Below, in pieces: positions 3,383 to 60,504 of a DNA stretch of 64,000 bases. The notes beneath the pieces are model-generated. The model was not told the DNA's origin. It saw only the letters and a program-made list of their open reading frames with translations, and made no database searches. The stretch covers positions 40,672,001-40,736,000 of the forward strand of contig JAGIQG010000008.1 in NCBI GenBank assembly GCA_024679065.1, in the 5' to 3' direction. The first letter of the stretch is position 1, and every line of letters starts with the position of its first letter. The position numbers and the translations under genes are program-made. The stretch comes from Sphyrna mokarran. Lineage: Eukaryota.

Positions 3383-4251
3383 TTAATGTAATGAGTATTT
3401 GTTAGTTTCTGTTTTAACACGAAATTTTCTTAAAATGGCTCCCAAATATAGACTGCCAGAAGTTACAAATATACTTATGTGGAGAATACTGAGACAGATG
3501 GCAGTTATTTTAGAATCGAGGGCTTGAGATGATGTCATAAATGAACCATGACTGATATTTTGAGTGGAAACCTCATGCACCTCTGAGATGAAATTATTTT
3601 TTCTGGAATCTCTTTAATTCTTCCAATATTAGTGGCTTAGCAAATTATTTCTGCGTTGGGAAGTCAAAACCAAATGTAATCTTCAGATTAAGTCAGGTTA
3701 GAGTCCAGAGAATAATTGGACAGGGGCATGCGGATATAATTCAGATCTGTTTTCAAGTCATTCTTTCTGTCTCTTTTTCAATTATAAACACATATGTTTA
3801 AATTTGTATTTGTAACTGCCAGAGTAAATGTGCCACTCTGCAATCTCACAATTTTACCAGTGGTGACACTATACTGATTCCACAAAGATATAATTATCAT
3901 ATTACAAATTTTCATAGATAATATTTATGTGAATATAAGAATTTATGGAAAGATTGTCAAGAAGCATGAACAAATACATAGTTTTGTATATTATAGCCAC
4001 ATAACAGTATTAATTTTAACAGAAAATTGATATATTAGTATTACATACTGTTGTGTGAAAAGGATTGTTTTTCTATTCTTACTGTTGATGTCATGATAGA
4101 TGGCAGCTGTGACAATCTAAAGTTGTTACTTGATAATGTGTCACTGAAATGATAAAAGTAAGAAGTAATCACAACCAGATTGGAGTTGAATTTGCATCAG
4201 ATTATTGAGAAATAACATTAAAATGTAATCATTACTATGTAGTATATGTAC

Positions 4252-4537
4252 GAACTCAGTAAGAATTTAGCAACACCAATTTATAATCCAACCGATTTAT
4301 TTGATAGTAAAAAAGCGAGCTTTCGACTCTTGTGTCTTCAGGCAAATGCAGTGTTCTGGTCTGCAATAGCACACATCAGCAATTTGCAGACCAGAACACT
4401 GCATTTGCCTGAAGAAGACACAAGAGTCGAAAGCTCGCTTTTTTACTATCAAATAAATTGGTTGGATTATAAATTGGTGTTGCTAAATTCTTACTGAGTT
4501 CTTACCACCCCAATCCAACGCCGGCATCTGTACATCA
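4252..4537. mobile_element. Non-autonomous head-to-head PLE pseudo-LTR element (family A) with 12-bp TSD
   Basis: Inverted arms 4252-4366 and 4384-4501 (one mismatch, one 3-nt indel); 17-nt spacer; tail ccccaatccaacgccggcatctgtacatca; flanks tagtatatgtac (4240-4251) and tagtaaatgtac (4538-4549). Confidence 0.9.
4403..4438 (+). ncRNA. Minimal type-I hammerhead ribozyme motif
   Basis: CUGAAGA(4409-4415)-A-GAC-ACAAGA-GUC-GAAA-GCUC; stem I is only 2 bp in this subfamily. Confidence 0.6.
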
Positions 4538-7500
4538 TAGTAAATGTACATCATTGAAGTAATTCAATCTTGTCCATTGTTTTAACTGATCACTATAACA
4601 GATTTACACAATGATACCTTGTGTAAATCTGTAGAAAGATGTTGTCTTCTCTGACAACTCTCATTTCCATGGAAGAAATTGCAACTTAATTTCCCCAAAA
4701 TGTTCAATCTTTTTGCAGAAGAAATATAAACTACTTAATGTTCATATGGTATTGTGTTAGTAACAGTTAATTGTTTGTATATACACATTAAATAGTTCAT
4801 CCTAGCAACCTTTTACATAGCACTTGCTATTCTAATAAATGCTTAAAATAGTGAAGAAACATTGGTGAAGTTTCAATGAGTCTGTTCGAAATAGAATGAT
4901 TCTGTACAATTAACCTGGGAGGGGGTAGGTGATAGTGGATGAGAAAGCTTTCAGATAAACTAATTTGCGTAAAAGTGCACTTACCCATAAATCCTAGCTG
5001 TTAATACTTCATGTTATTCTTCTGAAATACTTAAAATAACTGACAGTCACTTTTAAAACAATTTGGCATGTGTTGAGACCTTACTGAATGAAAGAGTTCA
5101 ATAAAATTCTTCTTTACCTTTGACAGTTAAAACCTTACAATAAGGCTCATTTGCATGTGGGCGAGACTGCTATTTTGTGCTGCTTTTTTTAAATTGAGGT
5201 TTTTGTTTTCAGCCTCCAATGGCAGATATTTACATAAAACAAGGAATCCCTTGTATTCCGTTGTGTTTTAGAAACATTTAACAAGTCAGACCACATTTTT
5301 ATTGATGTTTTACAGACCAAAATGGCTACCAACAGCTTAATTTCACAGAAAGAAGAAACATCATTTGAGGCTTGAAGACTGCAGGGAATGTTTTTGTGCA
5401 AAAGATATCAAATTAGATAATGTAAGCAAGACAGAGTTTGAAATAATTATTGTAGTTTTCTTTCAGTTTTCTGCTTGGCAAGTTTGAGTTGTGGGGCAGA
5501 ATTGTCCAAGTATCCAGCTGACTCTGTCTGGAATAAAGCCATTGTTGAACAATGAAGCTGTTTGTAATTGCTTGGCTCTGTGGCTGTAAATTATTGGGTT
5601 CTTTAATTATATATTTAAATGTCATTATAACCATAAGGCCACCACTTCCTAAAACAAAAAAAGTGTTCAGCTAGAGATACCCTAGTGTTAGTGTCAATTT
5701 CAGCATATTAAGTAACCACAGGTAAGCACCTTACCTCTTTGTGTGCTGCCAGTCTTCTGTTTATTGAAAGAACCCTGGGTTAACAGATTAGCAATGTTCA
5801 AATAAAATCAAAAGAAGGTATCAGTGAAACACATATCATTGATACTTTCAGATACATACAAATGCAGAGATAAGTTGAATATTTTGTCCAAATCTGGGGA
5901 AAAGGTGGGGGGGGGGAGAATGTTTTATATGTAATGGTATTGAACATCTGTGTGCCGTTTATCATTAATGAGCTAACACAACACAAAATCCAGTCTCATT
6001 GTGTCTGTTGTCAGCCAGCTTGAATATTATGCTTCAGTTGTTTTTGAAGCCTAATTTCAAGCTGCAAGCTGTTCACTTGTAGGACAGAATTGTTAGGGTT
6101 ATCAGCCTACATTTAGGAGCTTATTTGGTGACAGCTTGCCATTCGTATGTATAAATATCAGTATAAAAAAAGACTTCTCTAAAACCAGGGAAAATAAATA
6201 ATAGATTGTCATGGAAAATTAATATGAGACATTTAATTTGTGCCCAAACCTGAAATATAATTTACAATTCGATTGATAGTGATAATGCCTTTTTAAATAT
6301 ACATGTAATATTAACCCAAAATAAACTAAAATTCTATATGAGGGGGGAGAAAGATTAGCAGCATTTTGTCCCGTATAGGAAAAATAAAGCTTTAATTTGC
6401 AGGTAATCAGGCATAGAAAGATGACGGTCAATATGCCTAGGTAATCATTTTGATTGGTGGCGATTTCCACCATTTTGCCTGTATTTGATTGAGTAATATA
6501 GTGTTTTTATCCTTATGTTAAGGAAGGCAAGAAAACTTGAATTTTGAGGTTTATGCAGATTTGTACTCTGAAAAGTTTTAGAATTGGAGTGATGGTAGTG
6601 GTTACAGAGTTCAGCAGCATCCAAACTGATTATCAGAAATTACAGAAGTCAGATCTGTCTACACTGATGTTTGTTTAATTGTTGGTAAGATGACAAGAGC
6701 ACAATAGGAATGTGATTTAAGTAATAAATCTTCCAATTTGTTTGTAAATAGACATTTGCATCTAATCTATGTCAGGCTTTGATCAGCCAGAGGGGACATT
6801 TTCAATTTTGCAGGAAGGAATAGATGTCTTCATTGCTAACAAGTCTCATTCTGTTCTATGGCTTGTCCAATTGAGAATAACCAAACCCATCTTCTTCAAA
6901 TGTTGCAGGTATTAGGGAGGAATTGGCTTCATGAGAAACCATTTGGACACAACCCCTGTAAAACTAGTAATTCATAACCAGAAGGTTATAGGAATAGTTC
7001 CCAAGACTACTGTCATGACTTCACTCAATTATTCATGATTCAACTGAACTGTTACATGGGAATGGCATGAAAATAATTTAAGGAAAGGAAGATTCCGCAT
7101 GACTAGCTTCGATCCTCAATGGCAAATCATAGAACTGGACTGATGTGGTAACAGTGAGGTCCACAGCTGGTTGACGAATGTAAGGGAGCAAATAGTCTGC
7201 AAGGACAAAAATATGGATGATGATAAATTTTCAAAACAATGGGAAAAGATTTTTTGGAATATAAGCATAAATAATAAATATCAAATACATGTTTTGCCAG
7301 GAAATAAGATGTTAAACGATTAATTCCCAAGGAATGAATTTCATGCTTAGTATAGAGCGAACATATTACAAATTAATTCCCATGATTATTCAGTTGCCAT
7401 AATCTTGTAAAATGATGATTCATTATACTGGCAAATGCCATTTTGATTTAAATTAGACTTACATAAATCACATTAAAAAATTGATGATCTTTGCTATGTT

Positions 7501-13924: not shown

Positions 13925-15751
13925 TACTCCTAATTTGAAAAGTACACCTCATCTGGACTCTATTTGCACAATGCTCAGGAAGATCTATTCATATTTGTAG
14001 AACCATAGAATGTATACAGTACAGAAGGAGGGCATTTAACCTTTCATGTCTTTGTTGGTTCTCTGCAAAACGAACTCAGCCATAGTCCTCATAGCGCTGC
14101 AAATTTATCCCATTCAGTTAAACTTGGTGAGCCATCTTCTTTGAACCTCTGCACTCTATCAAGTTCAGACATGTCCATAATGCTGTTGAGTTCCAGGTTT
14201 TTGACTCAGTGACAATGGAAAGGGATGGCGATATATTTACAACTCAAGATGGTGTGTGGCTAGGAAGGGAATTTGCAGGTAATTGTGTTTGCATGCATTT
14301 GCTGCCCTTGTTCTTCTAAATGGTAGAGGTTGTGGCTTTGAAAGGTGTCATTGAAGGAGGCTTGGCTGAAGTGCATCATGTATATGGTGCACACTGATGT
14401 GACTATGCATCAGTGATGAAGAGAATGAATGTTTAAGATGGTGGATGGGGTGTCAGTCAAGCGGGCTGCCTCTTCCTTGGTGCTGTCGAGTTCCTTGAAT
14501 GTTGTTGGAGCTGTGGTCATCCAGGTAAGAGGAGAGTATTGCTTCAGACCTGACTTGAACCTTATAGATAGATGTTGGACAGGCTTTGGAAATCAAGAAA
14601 TTTGTTACTTTTTCTATCTACCATCTCAAAATGGTAGTTTAGTGTCATTCTTGATGTTGATAGTGGGGAAACAGCATAACATCATGAATTCACATCTGCA
14701 GCTGCAGAAATGGATGTCTACTACCTTAATTTGGATTTCTCTATCCCCATTTTTCTACGTATGGAAAAGCTAGCCATCATGGATTTGGCTTTTGCTGCAC
14801 TCTCCAGAGGAACCATCACTGTCCCCAATATTCTGAATGGAATACTGTCTGGAGTTGTGAAATGCATGTTGGTGATCCTCCTTGTTAGGCTGAGAATCTC
14901 ATTCTCTCTTTGCAGGGCTAGGTAGATAAATTTTGCACCTTAGTGGTTTTTCTCATCTGGGCCCTTTGGTACCCCTCCAAACCCTTAACCATCCCTTCAC
15001 ATCTTTTAGGTGCCCAGAATTGGAAACATAGTCACTGTGGGGTCGAACAGTTTTATATGGCTTTTGTATTCTCTATTTCTATCTATCTATAGATAGATAG
15101 CAATCTATCTATAAGGTTCAAGTCAGGTCTGAAGCAATACTCTCCTCTTACCTGGATGACCACAGCTCCAACAACATTCAAGGAACTCGACAGCACCAAG
15201 GAAGAGGCAGCCCGCTTGACTGACACCCCATCCACCATCTTAAACATTCATTCTCTTCATCACTGATGCATAGTCACATCAGTGTGCACTATATACAAGA
15301 TGCACTTCAGCCAAGCCTCCTTCAATGACACCTTTCAAAGCCACAACCTCTACCATTTAGAAGAACAAGGACAGCAAATGCATGCAAACACAATTACCTG
15401 CAAATTCCCTTCCTAGCCACACACCATCTTGAGTTGTAAATATATCGCCATCCCTTTCCATTGTCACTGAGTCAAAAACCTGGAACTCAACAGCATTATG
15501 GACATGTCTGAACTTGATAGAGTGCAGAGGTTCAAAGAAGATGGATCACCAAGTTTAACTGAATGGGATAAATTTGCAGGGCTATGAGGACTATGGCTGA
15601 GTTCGTTTTGCAGAGAACCAACAAAGACATGAAAGGTTAAATGCCCTCCTTCTGTACTGTATACATTCTATGGTTCTACAAATATGAATAGATCTTCCTG
15701 AGCATTGTGCAAATAGAGTCCAGATGAGGTGTACTTTTCAAATTAGGAGTA
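13925..15751. repeat. 649-bp near-perfect inverted duplication (arms 13925-14573 and 15103-15751; 529-bp spacer)
   Basis: Direct reverse-complement comparison: about 5 mismatches seen, no net indel (both end-pairs sum to 29676). Confidence 0.95.
14120..14900 (-). mobile_element. CR1/L2-group LINE 3' fragment (same family as 46330-47662)
   Basis: Antisense cagctccaacaacattcaaggaactcgacagcaccaagg matches 47200-47250 (APTTLKKLD-like). Confidence 0.75.
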
Positions 15752-19208: not shown

Positions 19209-19327
19209 CATAGAACACTATAGCACAAACAGGCCCTTTGGCCCACAAGTTGCACAGATCATGTCCATACTGACCAGTAAAGTTTTACAACACCAATTTT
19301 AAATCCAACCGATTTATTTGATAGTAA

Positions 19328-19367
19328 ATTCGCGAGCTTTCGACTTTATAGCCTTCGTCAGGCAAAT
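19328..19367 (-). ncRNA. Intact minimal type-I hammerhead ribozyme in PLE pseudo-LTR
   Basis: AUUUGC-CUGACGA-A-GGCU-AUAA-AGUC-GAAA-GCUC^GCGAAU: 6-bp stem I, 4-bp stem II, palindromic AGCU in place of stem III. Confidence 0.85.
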
Positions 19368-19581
19368 GCAGTGTTCTGGTCTGCAATAGCACTCATATCC
19401 ACTCAGACAGTTACAGATTGCTGATTAGGATGCGAATCCTTACATCTAACCTGCTATTCAAGTGTTAAAGTGGCTAACAATGTGTGTGAAGGGAATCCTG
19501 AGCATTGGTTAGAGAATTGTGTATTTTCTCCAGACAGCACAGTAAGTGAGGTTTTTTGCTAACCCAGGCAAGTTACGGGGG

Positions 19582-20487
19582 TTACAGATAGTGTGTCATG
19601 AAGCCAAGATCCCTATTAAGACCGTCCTCATGTGTGCGGAACTTGGCTATCAGTCTCTGCTCAGCGACTCTGCGCTGTCGTGTGTCACGAAGGCCCCCTT
19701 GAAGAACATTTACCCGCAGGTCGGAGGCCGAATGCCCATGACTGCTGAAGTGTTCGCCCACAGGAAGGGAACTGTTTTGCCTGGTGATTGTTGAGCGATG
19801 CTCATTCATCCGCTGTCGTAGTGTCTGCATGGTCTCCCCAATGTACCATGCTTCGGGACATCCTTTCTTGCAACGTATTAGGTAGACAACGTTGGCCGAG
19901 TTGCAAGAGTATGTACCGTGTACCTGGTGAATGGTATCCTCACGTTTGATGATGTCGTCCATGTCTATGATCTGGCATGTCTTGCAGAGGTTGCTGTGGC
20001 AGGGTTGTGTGGTATTGTGGTCACTGTTCTCCTGAAGGTTGGGTAGTTTGCTGCGAACAATAATCTGTTTGAGGTTGTACGGTTGTCTGAAAGCAAGAAG
20101 TAGGGGGGTGGGGATGGCCCTAGCGAGATGTTCATCGTCATCAATGACACGTTGAAGACTCCGGAGAAGATGTCGTAGCTTCTCCGCTCCTGGGAAGTAC
20201 TGGACAACAAAGGGTACTCTGTCCACCTTGTCCCGTGTTCATCTTCTGAGGAGGTCAGTGCGGTTTATCGCTGTGGCACGTCGGAATTGTCGATTGATGA
20301 GTCGAGCGCCATATCCTGTTCTCACGAGGGCATCCTTCAGCGTCTGGAGGTGTCTGTCACGATCCTCCTCATCTGAGCAAATTCTGTGTATACAGAGGGC
20401 TTGTCCATAGGGAATGGCTTCTTTAATGTGTCTAGGGTGGAAGCTGGAGAAGTGGAGCATTGTGAGATTGTCTGTCGGTTTGTCTGT
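19582..20487 (-). pseudogene. PLE ORF remnant: RT C-terminus, Cys linker and GIY-YIG endonuclease
   Basis: KPTD..LHFSSFHP..KEAIPYGQ..RICS; PCHSNLCKTC; VVYLIRC..CP..YIGET..LRQRMNEH..E..LI..GLNRD. ORFs 20239-20490 and 19582-20226 are in frame, separated by one TGA. Confidence 0.92.
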
Positions 20488-22146
20488 CATACTTACCAGG
20501 CCATAGAATTATCTGTAACTCCCAATCCCATTAAATCCCATGTACTCATCCAGAAGTCTTTTAAAAGACCCTAGCAAGTTCGTCTCTACCACCACCGATA
20601 GCAGCCAATTCCACTCACTCGCCACCTCTGAGTGAAAAACGTATCCCTAACATCTCCTCTGTACTTGCTTCCCAGCACCTTAAACCTGTGTCCTCTCGTA
20701 GCGACCATTTCAGCCCTGGGAAGTAGCCTGTGAGAATCCACCCTATCTATTCCTCTCAACATTTTATAAACCTCTATTAGGTCGCCTCTCAACCTTCGTC
20801 TCTCCAGGGAGAAGAGACCTAGATCCTTCAACCTATCATCATAAGGCATGCCTCCCAATCCAGGCAACATCCTTGTAAATCTCCTCTGCACCCTCTCAAT
20901 AGCTTCCACATCCTTCTTGTAGTGAAGCGACCAGAACTGCACCCAGTACTCCAAGTGTGGTCTGACAAGGGTCTTATAATGTTGTGGCATTATTTGTAGA
21001 TAAGTTTGGCTATGCTATCTGCACACTCCACAGTACATTCTTTCGCTTGAATAGCTTATAGCCACCAACATTCAAGAATAATAGGCACCTTCTGCACAAG
21101 GTGCTGAAAGTTTCCTCATGCCTGTAGTATTATGTATAATAGATAACTGGGAGTAATGACAAAGTTAGAATGTAATTAACCAAAAGATCCAATAGTTGGC
21201 ATATTTAATTCCTCATTTTCATGCCAACATTATATAATTTTCTTCTTGTTTTTGTTTCTTCCTGATAGCTAAGTACTTTGGAATTGATAGGTGATTGTTG
21301 CATTCCATGCAGAGTTGCATGTTTTGCTTTGTATCTGTCAGAACCTTCTGTATGAAAATGTTTCAAAATTCAAATATTTCAACTCAGAGTATTATATGAA
21401 GCAATGTTTTTTACAGCTACACATCTTGAATTAGTTTGATAATTACAGTGAAATGTCTAGACACATCACAATGTCAGGAACCACACTGATGTTACCTCCA
21501 AAGGTGTCCCAATTTGAAACTTTTGTTCGTGGTGGTGTGTAATTTTTTGAAATATTGTGAGAAGTCATGTAAAAACCCAGAAGGAACCAGAACTATCATT
21601 GTGTAACAATTACTAAAGAAGATTAATTAATTAACATAAAAGAAAAATACACATAAAAATAGAGTACAGTACACTATGACATAACTACACATCAGATATA
21701 TAGAAATTACCTCTTGTTCCAAAATATATCTATAGTCCCTTCCCTTCCCTTTCTCAAACAGCATCCAAATTAATAAATCAAATCCAGCTTACATTTACCA
21801 CTCCATACAGGCTGATGATCATCTGGATAAATTTCTTTTCCTTGTCCAGTGATGATGTTTAAGCTACTTCTACAAAAGTTTTCTCACAATGTCTTGACTC
21901 TAAGACATAGCTGCAACACTTCAATTTAGCATGCTTAAAGTGTTGAAACAAATTACAAATTTTTCACTTTGTAATGTAAGCAAATAAGGTTGTGACAATT
22001 ATAATTCTACTCTGCTTAGAAGATCAAATGTCTTTACATTATGAAATTCTAATTCACCTTCCACCTTTGCTTTTGATGTAGTTTTTTCTTAACTTGTTCT
22101 TTTCTCCATCCCTCTGACAGTGTTGATGTACTCTTGGTTATGAGGA

Positions 22147-27680: not shown

Positions 27681-30241
27681 AATGTCCTCTCTATAAAGTT
27701 GAGGTTATCCAAAACTCAGCTGCCCATGTTCTTACCTACACTACGTACCATTCACTTTCCCACCCTTCTCGCTGACTTGTATTGGTTCCATGTAAAGGAA
27801 AGTATTGATTTTTAAAGTTTCATCCCTGTTTTCAATTCCCTCCATACATCTTTATTTCTGTAATCTTTCAGTCCCATACACCTCAGATCAGTCATCATCT
27901 AGTTCAGGCTTCTAGAGTATCCCCAGTTTTAATTCTGTGCCAACTGTTACCTCAGCCCTAACTCTGGAATTCTTTCCCTACACTAATACACCTTTTTTCT
28001 TGCTTTCCTCTTTTGTAACACATTTACCTATTGGATCAAGTTTTTTGTCTAATATAGTTCAATATAATTTTATTTTATAATGCTCTTGTGAAATGTCATA
28101 GATGTTCTGTTCATTAAAGGCACTGTATAAACATGTTGACATCTTTTTCTGTTTTACTGATGTTCTTAACTTGGTTCTCTTCTATTATTTGTTCTAAGCT
28201 TCATTTATGCTCTGCTGTTCATCTTTCTTTTCAAAATATTCTCACCACATTGCGGTTGGGACTTGACATACAATATCCAAATGTAAATTGCTGTTCCCTA
28301 TTACATTGAAACAGTGGAACTTCTGCCTACTATGTATTGTCCTTTTTCAATCCTTAGGCTTTTAAAAGCCAAATTTTGTATCATCAGATCACAAATTTCT
28401 TCAGTCTTAATAGGTTCTGCACAGTGTGTTTTAGCTTATCAATTGAGTTTTCAATAGTAAGTAAAATCTTACTAAATATATAAACATCTATACATAGCAA
28501 TAATACTATTATTCTACCCTCCATTACTATACTTTGATAATATTGCAATAATCTGTTCCATGTTTCATCATCATTTCAAATCTTTGAACTGTCATTAACT
28601 TGTTTTATTTAAACTGAATTGTAAAAATAATTATATGTATTAGAGATTAATAACGGCATAAAATCCACCAAGGGCTTTGATCTTCATTTATACTGTAAGA
28701 TTCATACTCTACTCTCAAATAGCTTCTGGATTTCACTCACTTCACTGGTCTCCGAATTCAGACAACAGCTCATTGATGCTTCATATTAATTCCACCCTTC
28801 TTAATTTGTCATTACTCCACCATGACACCTTCCTATTATCACCATCTATTTCGTATTATATGTTTTCTGTCATATTTTAATGTATCCTAATTTCTACCTA
28901 ACTCGACATATGTAACTTGAGCTCTCTCTGTTCTCATTCACATTGGATATTTTGGTGTTGCTTTGGATTAGAGCCTATTCAATTTATTTCCAGTTTTGCC
29001 TTTCTCTTTAATATTTTTTCTCTTTCCCCCTCCTTGACTGTCTTCTAATGTCATGCCTCCTTTCACTCCCACTCTGTCAGGTATTCTACCTTCACAATTC
29101 ACAACCTCAACTCTTCAGTACTACTTGACCTTCTCTGATTTCTTGTTACTATTCTAAGCTTGACTCCCTGTTAGACAACATTACAACTTCCCTCCATGGC
29201 TTTCATGGCATCTTTTAAAGGGCTTATCAAGATACTCAGTAGTAAGCCCAATTTCACCATCCCACTTGTCAACTTGCCCTTCTGTTGCGCATGCTTGAGA
29301 CTAATCTTGCCAATCACTTTCTCATCTAAGTCATCACTTCCATTGCCAATCCTGTAGTCTCTATTAGCAGATCAACTTTCACTAATTCTTGATACATCTA
29401 CTTCCAAAACATTTGATCACTTTGGAACAAGACCCTTGCCATCTATTAATGTGTTGTAGGTGGTTGTATTGGCATCATGTCCTTAATAGACACTTGGCTG
29501 AGGGCTGATGATATCTCCCTCCTTAATGAGACCCCTCAACTGGCAACATCTTCCACCACTAATTCCATCAAGATAGTAATGGTATGTTTGGTCTGACCTG
29601 TACTTCTTTGACAATTCTCCTCTTTTGAACTTCTCATATTGTTCCACCTCTCTTATCTTTTTCAGAATCATCATGCAGTCTTGTCCTCCCAGGTATGATG
29701 AAAGTTTTATCACAGATTTTTCTTTGCTGCTTTCCTTCAGCCTTAGTAATTCCAATCTCCATCTCAACTCACCATTTCCTTGCTCCTCTGAGTTATCTAC
29801 TCTCTTACCCTCTCTATGTGTAAGATCCTTAAGCTATATCTTTAGCCATCCTTGACCTTGGTACTTTGTGGTATTTCGCTACTCTCGTAGTTTCAGTCAC
29901 AGATCAGGCCATATTTGATAATTTCCTTGTATTGGTCACCACCCACATCCACCTTTCACGCTCCAACCATACCTGTTTCTGTGTTTGTTCCTGGAAAAAA
30001 CTATCTTCTAATTCACTTATAGCTGCACTTTCAAAATCCAAATTATTTAGCCTTTGACTTTCTATTCACTCCAACTACTGATGCTCAAGTGCATCATCTT
30101 CACTTCAGTCGCAGTCCCTAACAAAAGCATTACTCTCTCTCAACCTGGCTGTTCCCTCGGAGAGCCCTTATCTCTAGTCACTGAATCCAAGAGGCACAGA
30201 CTTGAAGGAATATAATACACAACTGGCTTAGCCATACACTG

Positions 30242-30498
30242 TGGAGATGCTGGTGTTGGAGAGGGATAAACACAGTAAGAAATCTCACAACACCATGTTA
30301 AAGTCTAATAGGTTTATTTGGTAGCAAATGCCATTAGCTTTCGGCGCGGTGCTCCTTTGTCAGGAGAATGTCTTTATATGCCCTGTTTGTAAACAGAACT
30401 CCCAGTCACATGCTGAAGGAGCAGTGCTCCAAAAGCTAGTGGTGTTTGCTACCAAATAAACCTGTCGGATTTTAACCTGGTGTTGTGAGACTTCTTAC
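30242..30498. mobile_element. Head-to-head PLE pseudo-LTR element (family A2) with 13-bp TSD and decayed hammerhead cores
   Basis: Arms ~30274-30365 and ~30405-30499; tail on the left; tagccatacactg at 30229-30241 and 30499-30511. Confidence 0.85.
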
Positions 30499-30739
30499 TA
30501 GCCATACACTGCTAGACGTGGCTTAAAACACTACCAGGCCCTACTTATTCCACTAAGACATCTGACTACTCCAGAATCATCTTGCGATGCAAGAATAACC
30601 CACGGCTTATTTTCTTGACTGTACGTCATCATCTTAAACCTCTCCTTCCTGTCCTCTCAACCCTTGCCTCAAATTACAGTTGTGAGGAGCTCATTGATTT
30701 CTTTGACAATATAATTGAGACAATCTGATTGTAATGACT

Positions 30740-44630: not shown

Positions 44631-44797
44631 TAAAAGCAAATTACTCTGGATGCTGGAATGTGAAACAAAAACAGAAAATCCTGGAAAATCTCAGCAGGTC
44701 TGACAGCATCTGTGGAGAGAGAATACACCTAATGTTTTGAGTCTGGTTGACCCTTCATCAGAACTGATGAAAGGTCATTCAGACTTGAATTGTTAGT
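44631..44797. mobile_element. Head-to-head family-B pLTR element with two abutting hammerhead cores and 14-bp TSD
   Basis: Centre gacccttcatcag-aa-ctgatgaaaggtc; flanks ttgatttagtaatt (44617-44630) and ttgattgagtaatt (44798-44811). Confidence 0.85.
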
Positions 44798-47662: not shown

Positions 47663-49637
47663 GTTCATATGGTGCAAATGAAGGAACACAAACATCAAAA
47701 CTGCCAGCAGTAGTGGAAAAGTGAGTCTGGATATCTTGGAATTTTGCTTAATTAATTACCTTTCCTGCAGAAACTTTCCTTATATAAATTAAACAAATAG
47801 CTAGTTGCCTAAATTCAGAATTGGCAATGTGAACTCAGCACAGTTTTGATATGCCATAGGTATCAATTTATGTTCAGTCGTGTCATTTAATTTGTTTCAT
47901 TGTGCCTTGAGGAGTTAGGGTACTCATTACCCTAAAATCTACTTGCATGGTTATGCAACCTAAGAATCTAATAATTGAAATTACCTTCTGATTTCATAAA
48001 GTCAAGTTATTATAGCACAGGCCTTTCAGTCCATCATCCATGCTGACTCTCTAAAAAGCGGTATAGGCAGTTCTATTATCTGACTCTTTTCCTATTGCCC
48101 CTGAAAGTTATTTGGATCTATGAGTCTTTGCGATTTAAACATCTCTCTTCCTTCAATCTCTCCATAAGTAAACTGAGTTAACAATAGATAAGAGTTGGAT
48201 TGTAAACTATTTTATTCCACAGTAGGTAAAACACTGAGATTTATGATGCAATGGTGCAGAAGTAAAGAACAGAGAAGCACTTGCCCTCTATGGCAGAACA
48301 TCTTATTCAAATTAAAAGAACATTCTGTTTTTTTTCCAGGAGAGTCCTTTTGCAGAATTCTATTTAAGATTGACTCCTTGTCTGATTAAGCAATCTGAGA
48401 GGCTGTACAAATTCAAGGTACAAAATTTGCTTCAGAGTAAGCAAGCATGGCTGCTTGTCAGGGTTGTTAGAATAACTTTCAATCACAAATTTTAGTTAAC
48501 ACTGATCTTGTGTATTGATTCACAATGGGTAAGGACACTGGCAAGTTAATGGGGGCGATTCTCCCATCCTGCTGCATAGTTTTTATAGTGCAGCGGGCCA
48601 GAGAACTCAAGTGCCAGCCGATTTGTGTTGGGTGGCCAGGTCTCCCCGCCTAAGCTTTTCCGGTTAAGGACTCACATTGAAAATCAGGATAAGGATATTA
48701 GCATGCGTTAACATCTAATGAGCAGGTCTACAACTAGAATCCCCATCCCTGGTGGTGTCCCCTCTCCCTGCCACGACATTATGCTGGTGGTTTTTACAAC
48801 TGCTCTATAAAAGTCAAGACCTGGCATGGCAGCGTTGAACAGGATTAAGGAGGTATGTGCTGTGGAGCTGCAGCCTCCGGAATGCAGGGGAGGTTGGAGG
48901 CAGGGACTGGAAAATTTCTGCTTGTTGTGGGAAAGTTTCTGGAGAACTGGAAGTGCTGTCCCCAGGCCCAGGGATGTTTTATGTAGTCTCTGTGTGGTGA
49001 GGTGGAGCCCTTTACTGAGTGATGATCAGACCACTATCTGCTGCCAGTGAGCTACTGCTCTGGGATGGAGCCATTTATTGAGTGCTGGTCAAGCTGCAGC
49101 CTCAGTCACTGGGCTGTTCCACTGTACTGGTTATGGGGTGTGGTGAGGATTGCACTGAGTGCTGGAATTTTGGGGACAGGAAGTGCACCATGTGCTGCTT
49201 GAGAGCTCATCAATTCAGGTAGGTGGTACTTGAAGCAGGGGTGCTTTCGTTAACATAGGCACTCATGCTGCATGTACTCTGCAGTAAATGGGAGCCCATC
49301 TTGTGATAATTAGGAATCTGTCCCTGCCCCATGTCCCTGATCTGCAATGTATGCCTGGAAGGGAACGCTGTAGTTACACTCATGGCAATGGCTCAAGGGA
49401 GCACAATGGCCACGCCTGCATACTAACCTGTGTTTTCTCTCTCCCTGCCTGCTGTGTTAAACGATGCCAATGGCAGGCAATCGAATCAGGTGACACATGG
49501 CACCACAGGTGTAGAGTTGCCAGCATCCACAAGTGGGAGTACTGGTCCCAGTGAGGGATAAGGTGTTGGTGCTGCGATTGTTGCAAGCAATGACATGTAT
49601 CTATCAATCGCTCTCTCTCTAATACCCATTGCGTAGA

Positions 49638-51020
49638 ATGGATCTCAGTCTTATCGATCTAGAGCTGGCCATTGTGGTGGCGGTTGAGAAGGAGGAGGTG
49701 GCTCAGAAGGTGGAGGGCATAGGTAGGCCAGGGGGCTGCCACTGATGGCCATGAGGTGGCTCCTGAAAGGATGGCTAGGGGTAGGAGAATGCAGTCTAGG
49801 CAGTATCAGAACAGGACATCACTTCAGGGCTTATCAGAGGTGATGTGCCATCACTGTGAACATAGCAGGCAAGGATAGCATGTAACTTGTTGTGCGAGCA
49901 TGACCATTATGCTCCTTTGAACCATTGCCATGAGTGCAACTATAGCATTCCCTTCTAGACATGTATTGCAGGTCAGGGACACGGTGCTGGGATAGACTCC
50001 TAATTATCTCAAGATGGGTTCTCATTTACTGCAGAGTACATGCAGCATGAGTATCCATCTAATATCACCAGTGTGAACTGCTCTAACAACTAGCACCTCA
50101 GGAGGAGAGGTCACCTGCTCCCACTAGAAGTTTTACGCAACAGGATCATTTCACGCACCCAGTGGCAACCTATGTGGAATCTTGCAGGCCTCAGTCCACA
50201 GATGCATTGCCGGGTGACAGATGCCTTGAACGCTTACCAACATATCCATTTTGATATTGGAGAGGGTCAGCAGGAGGCTGGCACTGCAGGATTTATAATC
50301 CAACCGATTTATTTGATAGTAAAAAAGCGAGCTTTCAACACTCTGTGTCTTCCTCAGGCAAATGCAGTGTTGCCTGAGGAAGACACAGAGTGTTGAAAGC
50401 TCGCTTTTTTACTATCAAATAAATCGGTTGGATTATAAATTGGTGTTGCTAAATTCTTACTGAGTTCTTACCACCCCAATCCAATGCCGGCATCTGTATA
50501 TCATGACTGCAGGATTTGCCACTATTGCAGGGATGCCTTATGTGCAGGGGGCAGTGGATAGTTCCCCATGATGTGATGGGCAACCATTTAATAACAGAAA
50601 GGGATTCAAATTGTATGTGACCGTCAGATGAACATTGCAAGTCTGTGCACGCCACTCAGGTTACATGTAAGATTATTTGTGTTATGATACAACTTTTGTC
50701 CTACAAAAGCAATTAGTATTGGCTTACAATTACAGTGTTAAGACTAATTGCTTTTTTTATGGGAATTCTATGTGCTGTCGTGGCCGAACATCTCTGGGCT
50801 CGTCAAAGACCAGCATAGACTACCAGGATAACTCATGAGGACAATGGGTACTTGCTGCTATGGTGAGGCCCACACTGCCATCCAGTCCATAGTGGACTGT
50901 TGCATAGGCCTGCTGAAGATGCAGTTCCGCTGCCAGTGCCACTCTGGGGGTGCCCTCCAGTATGAACCTATGTGGGTGTCATGCATAATTGTACGTTGCA
51001 CCCCGCACAACACAGCGCAT
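49638..51020 (+). pseudogene. Harbinger DDE transposase (HARBI1-like), disrupted
   Basis: FYATGSFH..GNLCGI.QASVHRCI; FATIAGMPYVQGAVD; FNNRKGF; YGEAH..IGLLKMQFRC..SGGALQYEP..IIV..HN (ORF 50835-51158). Confidence 0.88.
50295..50505. mobile_element. Head-to-head family-A pLTR element inserted in the transposase, 12-bp TSD
   Basis: Perfect 71-bp arms 50291-50361 and 50370-50440; actgcaggattt at 50283-50294 and 50506-50517; both arms carry CUGAGGA-A-GACAC-AGA-GUGUU-GAAA-GCUC. Confidence 0.92.
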
Positions 51021-55194: not shown

Positions 55195-57418
55195 TATTAA
55201 TCCTATCTACATCCCTCATTCTACCAATGAAGTTCTTTAAAATAACAATTTCCAGTTTACTAGCCTTAACAAACTCCTTTTCTCCATGGACATCCAATCT
55301 CTCTATTCCTCCATCCACCACACAGTGGGAGCTCACTGCTTTTTCATTAAATGGACACTCACCCAGTCTCCATCCACTAGCACCCTTCTCAAGTTGGCTA
55401 AACGTCTTCTTACATTGAACAGTTTCTTATTTAACTCCTCTAATTTCCTCACAAATGAGGTCTCTTTAGGGAACCCTTATGGGTTGTAAATATGCCTGAA
55501 TTTTTGTAGAATATGTGGAACATTTCTTGTTCCAGTTCTACTCAGATTCTTTCCTTAAACCTTATTTCTCTGATACTTCTGGGTGGCGCAGTAAGGAGTA
55601 ACCGTGGGTTAGCACCACGCATCTTAGTGCCAGGGATCCAGGTTTGATTCCCAGTTTGGGTCACTGTCTGTTATAGAATTTGCACATTCTCCTTTGTCTG
55701 CATGGGTTTTCTCTGGGTGCTCTCATTTCCTCCCACAGACCAAAGGCATGCGCATTAGGTGGATTGGCCATGCTATATTGCTCCTTAGTGTCAGGTGGAC
55801 TAGCTCGGATAAATGCATGCGGTTATGAGGATAGCGCCTGAATGGGATTGTGGTTGGTGCAGACTTGATGGACCGAATGGCTGCCTCCTGCACCATAGGA
55901 TTCTATGATACTTTGACTGTATTAGTGCTGCTTTCTCCTCATTGTCAAGGACTGGAAAATTTAATCATTTTTACTTCCAATTTACACCTTATTCCCACTT
56001 TCACTTGGTTCATCTCTGACTCTTCCCTTCCTGAATGTCCCTGTCTCAATTTCAGGCTCTGAACGCATATTCACTATAAGTCCATTGATTTTTTTTTTTA
56101 TCCAGCTACTATACTTCATCACACTCTGAAGAACTCTGCTCCGTTTTCTCAATTTCTTCCACCTTGTCACATCTATTCTGATGACACAAATCTCCTTACC
56201 AGTGTTCCACTCCATCTTCCTGATTTCTCAGCTGAAAATTCCCCCTCCACTATGGTCAACAGGGCACTTGACCATATCCGTTTCACTTTACACACTTCTA
56301 ATCTCCCTCTTTCTCCTGTTTCCAGAATCACAATAGGGAGTCCTGTCCTCACTTCCCATCCATCAGTATCCAATCGCAATGATCATCCTATGCCATTTCC
56401 TGCACCTCAGGCATGATGTCCCCATTAAACACATCTTCTCCACCCACCCCTTTGGACATTGCAAAGGTACTGTTCCTTCCGTAATGCTCTGTGTCCAGTC
56501 TTTGATTGCTCCCATTACCCCATCCCACAGCACCTTTCATCTATTTTCATAGGTCTAAGGCCCCAAATACTGTTTTCATGTGAAACAGCAATCTGTGTAT
56601 TTCTTTCAATTTTGTATATTATAGTCGCTGCTTATGATGCTGTTTACTCTATACTGGAGGTGCCAAAATTATGGTGGAACACTGTAATTCATATTGTAAG
56701 CATAACTAAGTTTTCAATTATCTGTCATGTTAATTCTTTTCTCCACTTCCACTTTACAAGAGACTTAGGACAGAGAAGTTAATATTTCAATGAAGCTGAA
56801 TGTAAACTCACCTTTAATTAGGCACTTTACAACCTTCTGAACTCAGCTTTAAAGTAAACAAATCAAAATATTGTAACCTCTGCCCCCAATTTGTTATTTC
56901 TTTCCCCAATTTGGGATTTTTTGAATTTTGAATGGCAGCTGTTCATAACTGCCATTCACGCCTTCTTTAGCTATGTCTTCTGTTTATAAAAGCAAATTAC
57001 TGTGGATGCTGGAATCTGAAAGAAAAGCAAAAAGTGCTAGAAAATCTCAACAGATCTGACAACATCTGTAGAAAGAGAACAGCGTGAACATTTCAAGTCT
57101 GGATGACTGTCATTTTTTGTTTCTTTACTTTTAACGTTTGCCTTTTGCCGTGCATTATTAACCTTTTTGACATTTAGTCTTTCCTGTCTTCTATCATTCA
57201 CTGAGCTTTTATTTCTTTTTCCTCCTTTCTCCATTTCCCTGCCTCTATATTTGCTTAAAACCTATTAATTAAAACTCTAACTTTTTCCAGTTCTGATGAA
57301 AGATCAGTAACCCGATCAACTGATTTGTGTCTTCACAGATTCTGCCAGACCACTGAGTTTTTCCAGTATTTTCTGATTTTGTTTCAAATTTTCAGCATCT
57401 GATGTATTTTACTCTTCT
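55195..57418 (+). mobile_element. Decayed PLE (family B): RT region to pLTR
   Basis: MDIQSLYSSIH (ORF 55286); pLTR with ctgatgaaag at 57293; inverted pLTR piece at 56987-57110. Confidence 0.75.
55580..55910 (+). mobile_element. HE1-type V-SINE nested in PLE
   Basis: gggtggcgcagt..gggttagcac..ggtttgattccc..taggattctatgat. Confidence 0.85.
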
Positions 57419-58287
57419 ACAATTATACTGCCCCTTTCATTGCAATACAATGTGAATTTTACATAACACATTGGTTAACTAAGTGCATGTCCTCATCTAG
57501 GATCCAAGTGTACAAAAATTGAGTAATGTGAATCTTCTGCAAAAGTCACGCTCACACCATTTTTAGTTTGCACCAGCTGTGGGACAATTCCAGTTATGTG
57601 TAAAACAAGTGGATCAGTTGGAACTTGGAATTTATTCATATTGGAACTTATTCACAGTAGGATGATGTGGCAAATCTCACATATGCCCAACTGACATGGG
57701 AAGCTGTGTTGTGTGGATGTCACAGAATCACAGAATTGTTATAGCACAAGTGGGAAGCCACTTGGCCAATCATATCTGTGCTGGTTCCCCAGAGGGGCAA
57801 GTTATCTTGTGCCAGTCCCTCATCTTCTCCAGATGACCTTGCCCATTTTTCTTTTCAGACAACAATCTAATTCCATCATAATAATCAAGAGTCATCCAGA
57901 CTTGAAACCTTGGCTCTATTGTCTTTTCACAGATGGAGTCAGACCTGCTGAGATTTTCCAACATTTTCTGTTTTTGTTTCAGATTCCAGCATCCACAGTA
58001 ATTTGTTTTATCTTAGTTTTTAACTAATTGCCATTTCTCTTCCAGGAATGTCAAGCCTGAAGAAGTACGGCTCTTCTTTCTGACAAGATTTCCATTTGTT
58101 TCTTTTGCTCTGTCCAATTCATTGCTTTCCATTTCTGTTCTGGTGCTTGACAAGGTATTTACCAAAACTCATTTTCACAGCCATATTGCCTTCCTCAGTG
58201 ACTGTCTCTATCTCTGACTTACCCCACATGGATTCCAACAGAAGTTCCATCCCTCACCTTTTGAATCCACCTGGGATTACAGATATC

Positions 58288-58509
58288 AGTAAAGTTTTGC
58301 AACACCAATTTAAAATCCAACCAATTTATTTGATAGTAAATCCACGAGCTTTCGACACTATGTTGTGCCTTCGTCAGGCAAATGCAGTGTTCTGATCTGC
58401 AGAGGCACTCATATCCACACAGACAGTTACATACTGCTGGTTGGATTTTAAATTGGTGTTGCAAAACTTTACTGAGTTTACCCCAGTCCAACGCCGGCAT
58501 CTCTACATC
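58288..58509. mobile_element. Asymmetric head-to-head family-A pLTR element with perfect 12-bp TSD
   Basis: attacagatatc at 58276-58287 and 58510-58521; arms ~58287-58322 and ~58439-58474; tail ccccagtccaacgccggcatctctacatc. Confidence 0.92.
58340..58383 (-). ncRNA. Intact minimal type-I hammerhead ribozyme
   Basis: AUUUGC-CUGACGA-A-GGCAC-AACAUA-GUGUC-GAAA-GCUC^GUGGAU; stem I is kept with G-U pairs. Confidence 0.8.
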
Positions 58510-59647
58510 ATTACAGATATCTCCAGGATTTGCAATGTTCCTCAGACTGCTGTTTTTGCCACATACTGCCATTGGCACATACTTGATATCTCTCTCCAGC
58601 AGCACCAACTCTCACTAAGCTCTCCTTGTCCCCAGTTTCATTTCATTCTTTGTCTTATCTGACATCTTAACAATAATTTTTTTTTCTCTTCCTTTCAGGT
58701 ATTAAGAAACGTAAACTCCAACAACTCCCTCTTAGGAGTCGCTTTCCTGTCCCATCCCTTGGATCCCATCCCTTCTAACCCCAGCCTTGGCCATATATTC
58801 ACCATATCCTCCGACCTTCCCCTCTGTAAAGCCGGACATGCTGTACCCAGCAAAGGACTTGGCTTACACATGTCCTGACCTCAACCAATTCTAAAAACAA
58901 CTGGATGCTAAACTTTTCTTTCGCCGCCTTTATCTCCATGTTCTCTTCTTTAGGTAGGAGTCCTCTCCCCCATTCAGCCGATCCTTTCATCCACCTCCAG
59001 CATTCTCCCTCCACCTGGACCCATCCTCTGGCGTCTTACCTGCTCTTGATCTTTACATTGAACATTCTTGGTTTGACATTGGCCATTGCAATTTCTCTCT
59101 CCTCTCACCTACCCAAATCTGTCGCCTTCTGAACTTGCTGCACTTTGCTCACTCGGGTCCAATTCTGACTTTATCATCAAACCTGCTGACAAGGTTAATG
59201 CTTTTGTTGCCTGGTGTATTGATCTCTACCTCACAGAGGCTGAGAGCTAACTCTCGGACATTTTCTCCTACCTTCCCCTGGAATATAACTCTACCACTGA
59301 ACATCAAGCTACTCTCTCCAGGACTGTCACTGATCTTATCTCTGGAGGTCTTTTCTCCACAGCTTCTAACTTCATAGTTTCCCCAGCCGTGACAACCCAT
59401 GCTTGTCTCCTTCCCAAAATTCACAAACAGGCTGTCCTGACAGGTCCATTATGTTCTTGCCCCACTGAACTAAATTTTTTCTATCTTGATTTCATTCTCT
59501 TTCCTCTTATCCAGTCCCTTCCCAACTACATCACTGAATTCTCTGATGTCTTTTGCCATATCAACAAATGCCAGTTCCCTGGCCTAAATCATCACCTCCT
59601 CACCATGGATATCCAATCCCTCTACACCTTCATTCACACTCAGATGG

Positions 59648-60405: not shown

Positions 60406-60446
60406 GAGCTCTGATGAAGGGTCATCTTGACTCAAAATATTAGCTC
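60406..60446 (+). ncRNA. Decayed family-B hammerhead motif
   Basis: GAGCU-CUGAUGA-A-GGGUC-AUCUU-GACUC-aAAA-uaUU-AGCUC: stems I and II intact, GAAA changed, consistent with CpG decay. Confidence 0.6.
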
Positions 60447-60504
60447 TATTCTTTTCCATTGTCAGAGCTGCTGAGATTTTCCAGCATTTTCTGTTTTTGT
60501 TTTG

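Follow-up and report, generated by a model that had tools for sequence, protein, structure and literature searches.

Penelope-like elements (PLEs) carry minimal hammerhead ribozymes (min-HHRs) in their pseudo-LTRs (pLTRs), and four recurring features are described for them in Cervera and De la Pena 2014 (PMC4209133), namely families that covary, a residue that lies between positions 9 and 10.1, a G10.1-C11.1 pair and a palindrome at positions 15.2-16.2. An S. mansoni min-HHR is reported there to show no cleavage as a monomer and low cleavage as a dimer in vitro, and dimer cleavage of min-HHRs is described as needing a tandem layout (PMC6765202, PMC6466107). According to Frangieh et al. 2024 (PMC11167929), the hammerhead of PAc, the Poseidon PLE of Anolis carolinensis, did not cleave unless PLE protein was supplied; moreover, catalytic mutants had no effect on insertion in vitro and uncut RNA was the main template. 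The satellite-2 non-LTR retrozymes of newt and axolotl also bear type I hammerheads, with a weak helix III region containing a palindrome, and are reported to cleave better as dimers; they are non-coding tandem repeats of 330-350 bp that give circular RNAs (PMC7229834). Among chondrichthyans, one species was sampled for retrozymes in a 2026 preprint (10.64898/2026.07.22.740005). Our literature searches found no report on PLE ribozymes of sharks or other elasmobranchs, the supplements of that preprint being a place where such a family may be listed, and the searchable supplement of PMC4209133, one file of which is unsearchable, holds no shark or Callorhinchus entry.

Here, we analysed a stretch of 64,000 nucleotides of Sphyrna mokarran DNA (the window), in which a sequence-only reading had placed an intact hammerhead ribozyme downstream of a GIY-YIG open reading frame. 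We show below how this locus and its genomic family compare with the systems described so far.

Results

A minimal hammerhead on the minus strand

All the parts that had been claimed for the minus strand (stem I, CUGACGA, an extra A, stem II, GAAA and CUC) were found. Residues are numbered in the form used for PLE hammerheads, and the features are as follows, all on the minus strand and each part read from the sequence.

19328..19367, minus strand: minimal type I hammerhead motif (min-HHR), from the sequence, the shuffle control and covariation among family copies
19367-19362, minus strand: stem I, 5' arm, AUUUGC
19361-19355, minus strand: CUGACGA box
19354, minus strand: extra A
19353-19350, minus strand: stem II, 5' arm, GGCU, followed by the loop AUAA
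19345-19342, minus strand: stem II, 3' arm, AGUC
19341-19338, minus strand: GAAA box
19337-19334, minus strand: G-C-U-C with the CUC triplet
19333-19328, minus strand: stem I, 3' arm, GCGAAU

The motif has the core of a type I hammerhead, with CUGANGA, GAAA, a UH triplet and stems I and II, the former of six pairs and the latter of four, each including one G-U. Stem III had been described as reduced to a self-complementary AGCU, and we indeed found this palindrome at 19338-19335 with neither helix III nor loop 3. The cut is predicted after C17, just 3' of the CUC triplet and between 19334 and 19333, as the earlier reading had it. The hallmarks of PLE min-HHRs are also present: A19354 lies between positions 9 and 10.1, G19353-C19342 corresponds to the G10.1-C11.1 pair, and positions 15.2-16.2 are palindromic in the absence of helix III. 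Judged by its sequence, the motif is genuine and looks intact, and it belongs with the minimal type I hammerheads of PLEs.

A strict minimal-hammerhead descriptor matched twice in the window (19361 and 58377) versus 0 matches in each of 200 dinucleotide shuffles. Genome-wide, the family motif pattern had 15,061 matches versus 0 for a reversed control, and a more general pattern had 25,227 versus 2. A chance match as the origin of the motif is ruled out by the shuffles together with these family counts. The Rfam hammerhead models gave no match to the motif, either at the gathering score or at E<=10. Elsewhere in the window, the motif at 58377 has an intact core and a stem II of 5 bp; the one at 4341 has lost three core bases.

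Variation among family copies

Stem II was compared among strings taken from fetched loci and from the window. With 52 distinct strings, pairs 2-4 make up 156 cells, and 136 of these were paired, versus a shuffle mean of 109 (sd 3.8; 0 of 5000 shuffles reached 136), a count that is not to be read as a probability because the copies are related and the shuffle test ignores their kinship. A-U, G-C, U-A and C-G were all found at the same positions across strings. Pair 1 was G-C in 38 of the 52 strings and G-U in 13, being partly fixed by the search pattern, which required R..Y. Variation in stem I was mostly decay of the 3' arm, with 27-34 of 39 paired per position. Stem II thus covaries among family copies, and the family is one of many copies in a single genome, as described for min-HHRs. 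In the genome-wide pattern, the cut site and its 3' side are still joined in 12,260 copies.

Folding of the motif

Unusual stability of the motif fold was not found (z -0.31). When folded in its sequence context, the motif had a competing hairpin over the catalytic core, pairing 19363-19360 with 19351-19354 at P about 0.8, and the hammerhead stems reached P<=0.16 for stem I and P<=0.24 for stem II. Nearest-neighbour energies, from which tertiary contacts of the core are excluded, were -12.9 kcal/mol for a modelled double hammerhead, 2 x -6.6 for two monomers and -24.7 for a non-catalytic duplex. The double hammerhead can make every one of its pairs, yet other structures are favoured in folding; since tertiary contacts are omitted, these energies are weak evidence. 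The alternative hairpin (GCCU/AGGC, 19363-19351 of the window, minus strand) sequesters the core in subfamilies whose stem II starts with GGC and cannot form in those where it starts with GAC. It could be an off-state of the hammerhead.

The element carrying the motif

The motif lies in the 3' end of a Penelope-like insertion, itself placed in an older repeat.

20498..21014, resuming at about 19265-19209, minus strand: older dispersed repeat, target of the PLE insertion; its flanks are contiguous in uninterrupted copies
20488..20497, minus strand: upstream half of a probable target-site duplication (10 bp, of which 9 are identical), followed by five extra bases (20487-20483)
20482-19276, minus strand: 5'-truncated PLE of 1.2 kb, from the extent shared with sister copies
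20239..20482, minus strand: 5'-most remnant of the PLE ORF, in frame and downstream of the RT core, from its translation; 96.9% match to the unit of locus L071
19582..20238, minus strand: C-terminal 218 open codons of the PLE ORF, with a CX5CX2C linker (CHSNLCKTC) and a GIY-YIG endonuclease with CCHH-type residues, from Pfam and motif positions
19276..19581, minus strand: non-coding 3' part of the pLTR, holding the hammerhead; the stop codon ends at 19582 and the 3' end, 19275, is common to sister copies
19266..19275, minus strand: downstream half of the likely target-site duplication, from flank comparison

The older repeat (20498..21014) is presumably the 3' part of a CR1/L2-type LINE. Its flanks are contiguous, with no PLE between them, in uninterrupted copies such as L127, L038 and L095, and joints that skip the PLE also occur in contigs of one sequencing run (X1). 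The 3' end of the window PLE lies 58-59 nt beyond the predicted cut, which is the short type of end, devoid of a tail of ~35 nt.

As to the GIY-YIG ORF claimed upstream of the motif, the domain is real (PF01541, in frame at 20238-19582, 24 bits for a Pfam cut-off of 22.6, E 4.8e-05), but it is not a free-standing gene. It represents the tail, running from stop to stop, of a truncated PLE gene, which is broken by an in-frame stop at 20241-20239 and lacks its RT core and start. Because of the 5' truncation, the in-frame stop, the contiguous repeat flanks and the 10-bp duplication with one mismatch, the sequence leads us to regard the window copy as a young, dead PLE insertion with one lone 3' pLTR.

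The nearest family motifs on the same strand as 19328..19367 are 15,020 bp, 30,996 bp and 39,016 bp away, the closest with a damaged core. Given this distance and the lone 3' pLTR, no cis partner is evident. As to a host gene, Pfam gave 0 matches in the 40 scanned of the 70 frames of >=85 aa, a search that short exons would escape, and a host transcript through the locus may exist.

Other repeats were observed in the window. Four short head-to-head pieces of PLE ends, that is, inverted pLTR fragments, lie at 4248-4538, 30240-30499, 50291-50508 and 58286-58514; most have a tail on one arm, and those at 4.3, 50.3 and 58.4 kb belong to the same PLE family as the copy at 20482-19276. An inverted repeat with arms of 649 bp (13925-14573 and 15103-15751) is 99% complementary over a spacing of 529 bp. 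Another, of 160 bp and 86% complementary (49261-49420 and 49893-50052), opens a GC-richer stretch at 48-54 kb with 47-51% GC. A further dispersed repeat (about 1207 on the minus strand, 44631-44765, 56987-57108, 57884-58009 and 60407-60502) bears a degenerate hammerhead-like word, CUGAUGAA...GAAA, and its copies are probably the ends of an older PLE family.

Sister copies and the full-length unit

A DNA search of the same genome gave 1,511 candidates, and the 40 that were scored were all 98-100% identical over >=325 bases; with a more upstream piece, 40 were scored of 2,052 candidates. The sister copies are 96-99% identical and share 20482-19275, and many extend upstream into RT sequence. The single ORF with RT plus a GIY-YIG domain at the C-terminus that characterizes EN+ PLEs is seen in sister loci, the window copy being devoid of the RT core. 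Indeed, locus L034 has both RVT_1 (27.7 bits, just under the cut-off of 29.6) and GIY-YIG in one open frame, and RVT_1 reaches 30.9 bits in L032, above this cut-off. A homologue search gave 112 longer proteins, most of them with RVT_1; they are mostly unnamed, the named ones being mainly gene models of turtles and other animals.

Locus L071 is a tandem copy whose motifs, all on one strand, lie at 5151, 2134 and 1268. A frameshifted RT-endonuclease ORF stands between the first two, which are separated by 3,017 bp; a partial second unit follows, and the third motif lies 866 bp further. At each of the first two motifs, 95 nt separate the predicted cut from the ORF ATG that follows it, and the short 3' end comes 60 nt after the cut. 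The motif is therefore found at both ends of the ORF, as befits a pLTR, in a unit to which the window copy is 96.9% identical. A second PLE family, about 70-78% identical, adjoins several copies (L071:6-1012 on the plus strand; L006, L013, L032 and L034) and carries its own min-HHR, which ends in GCUA in L071.

Among 96 distinct contexts, 38 had the short 3' end, 51 an end about 35 nt longer and seven ran on, with none in between. These two classes of 3' end are the tail signature of PLEs, as described in the parts seen of PMC11167929 and PMC8557442. Across copies, the features of EN+ PLEs were found, namely pLTRs, partial tandems, inverted 5' copies and an optional tail of 30-40 nt. The CX2-5CxxC linker between RT and EN that marks Neptune is present as CHSNLCKTC. 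The source element may accordingly be called a Neptune-like Penelope retrotransposon, a label taken solely from the linker motif, which Nematis shares.

5' ends around the cut site

The 5' ends of copies were counted with mismatch-filter patterns, which matched 16 times at -8, 9 at -4, 45 at +1, 30 at +5 and 75 at +9. Inspection covered the '+1' class alone; among 30 of its 45 members, eight retained upstream family sequence and were not true ends, so that 45 was scaled to 33. The estimated 5' ends per position were about 45, 26, 106, 208 and 229 at -8, -4, +1, +5 and +9, the patterns for +5 and +9 being looser and admitting more subfamilies. The step across the cut is roughly 4-fold relative to -4 (p 7e-05), with p 0.004 relative to -8. 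A sharp cleavage footprint was rejected, the step having no peak at the cut. Overall, the copies that start at the predicted cut or shortly beyond it amount to about 1% of the family, several times the number that start just before it. At 33 of the 75 '+9' junctions the same word occurs, which corresponds to the stem II 3' arm in reverse complement; this probably marks a hot spot of template switching, from which inverted copies at the hammerhead would arise.

Discussion

The motif is of an already described kind, the PLE minimal hammerhead, and belongs to a set of about 15,000 sister copies genome-wide. Compared with the metazoan PLE min-HHRs for which the available text of PMC4209133 gives details, all four recurring features are present in the shark motif; the host and the family are different, and the count is higher here (15,061, or 25,227 for the general pattern). 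Relative to S. mansoni in the same source, stem II is of 4 bp and stem I of 6 bp instead of 7-8 and 4-5 bp.

The family resembles PAc, as described in PMC11167929, in having its hammerhead in the pLTR and close to where the ORF begins, a pair of discrete 3' ends that define a 30-40-nt tail (matching RT start sites in PAc) and signs of uncut RNA as the dominant template, which was shown in PAc. In contrast, the PAc ORF starts inside stem II and is cut 26 nt into the ORF, whereas the shark-family ATG is 95 nt downstream of the cut, with the longer 3' end at about the ATG. A further difference from PAc, a Poseidon element, is that the linker of the shark family is the CX2-5CxxC one known from Neptune and Nematis. 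It shares with the Neptune-clade EN+ PLEs, as far as these are covered in the text consulted of Craig et al. 2021 (PMC8557442), the order of RT then C-terminal GIY-YIG, this linker, an HHR in the pLTR, 5' truncation, partial tandems, inverted 5' copies and the tail.

The layout had also been likened to that of newt satellite-2, a parallel that does not hold. The amphibian hammerhead, according to the parts seen of PMC7229834, keeps a helix III of one or two pairs closed by a palindromic tetraloop, as well as loop 1-loop 2 contacts, and these are not in the shark motif; nor do the non-coding tandem repeats and circular RNAs of that system apply to it.

The predicted cleavage as a dimer through the palindrome was sustained in part. 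The motif is a minimal PLE-type hammerhead, a kind thought to need a dimer (PMC4209133 and PMC6765202, each as partly available), but no cis partner is evident and the dimer fold is not favoured. By analogy with its relatives, the window hammerhead would cut RNA weakly, as a pair or with help from a protein. It had further been proposed that a lack of cleavage under Mg2+ would refute the hammerhead. This does not follow, since the available accounts of PLE relatives report weak dimer cleavage (PMC4209133) or a need for the PLE protein (PMC11167929).

We consider it highly probable that the motif belongs to the pLTR of its source PLE and that the window copy, being 5'-truncated and stop-broken, has a ribozyme that is likely inert in place. 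The source element has one motif in each ~3.0-kb unit, and L071 shows the predicted cut 95 nt before the ORF ATG. Published PLE work suggests that, in a tandem transcript, two motifs might pair through AGCU and be cut slowly after CUC, probably with the aid of the protein that the element encodes. Reverse transcription is likely to begin at a point 59 or ~95 nt downstream of this site and to copy across it. If it does, landed copies, including that of the window, would come from RNA uncut or re-joined at the site, and the 12,260 copies with an intact site suggest that templates were mostly uncut. The intact look of the motif is best put down to the youth of the copy (97-99% identity with its sisters), not to any use of it at this locus.

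Other readings have to be weighed against this one. The window copy might be an active ribozyme in vivo, which, transcribed by read-through, would cleave in trans with a sister motif or with the PLE protein and thereby cut a host or LINE-driven transcript. Its core has lost no residue and thousands of near-identical partner motifs exist in the genome; protein-assisted cleavage is known for the Anolis PLE (PMC11167929, as partly available); and family sequence occurs in contigs of three runs recorded as RNA and one guessed as RNA (X1, X2, X3 and X5), a presence that is not copy-specific and is silent on expression, strand and ends. However, a same-strand partner is absent within 15 kb, and the modelled double hammerhead is no better than two monomers and far above the non-catalytic duplex. 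Moreover, the copy is devoid of the ORF start region thought to be bound by the Anolis protein, and no reads ended at the hammerhead site in Anolis RNA-seq, both according to the accessible text of PMC11167929. We therefore hold activity of this copy to be quite improbable; the lone copy is likely silent. That the motif is instead a retrozyme or a self-cleaving repeat of the newt-satellite type, or a chance match, deserves hardly any credence: it does have a type I fold with a palindromic helix III region, and retrozymes are argued to derive from PLE pLTRs in the part seen of the 2026 preprint (10.64898/2026.07.22.740005), but it is a single motif joined to a coding PLE remnant and not a short non-coding tandem unit, it has neither helix III nor loop 3, chance is excluded, and such an origin is contradicted by the RT-EN remnant to which it is joined and by L071, the tandem locus.

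It seems rather unlikely that the family motif has lost cleavage altogether and persists in the pLTR for its structure or as a signal bound by protein. In favour of this reading, RNA that was uncut or re-joined at the site gave rise to at least 12,260 copies, catalytic mutants left insertion unaffected in vitro (PMC11167929), and Naiad PLEs thrive without canonical HHRs (PMC8557442). Against this, the catalytic boxes are fixed while stem II shows compensating change across several subfamilies, a pattern expected of selection on catalysis, the boxes being fixed by design in the general search pattern. A germ-line record of the ribozyme at work, in which a cleaved 3' product would occasionally serve as template and be inserted, uncut RNA being the source of most insertions, is likewise doubtful. 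The step in 5' ends is a weak hint that some templates were cut, affecting about 1% of copies, and stalling of RT at stem I explains it equally well. If true, such a record would testify to cleavage by PLE hammerheads in vivo, for which evidence is said to be lacking in the PLE literature consulted.

To conclude, the motif at 19328..19367 is best seen as the hammerhead of a source PLE pLTR carried along in a truncated insertion. The single locus matters little, as one young, broken copy among thousands. The PLE family, for its part, is a usable test bed for the in vivo role of PLE hammerheads, since its covarying variants are many, its tandem unit is clear and its insertion junctions number in the thousands, with 5' and 3' ends that may be mapped against the predicted cut.
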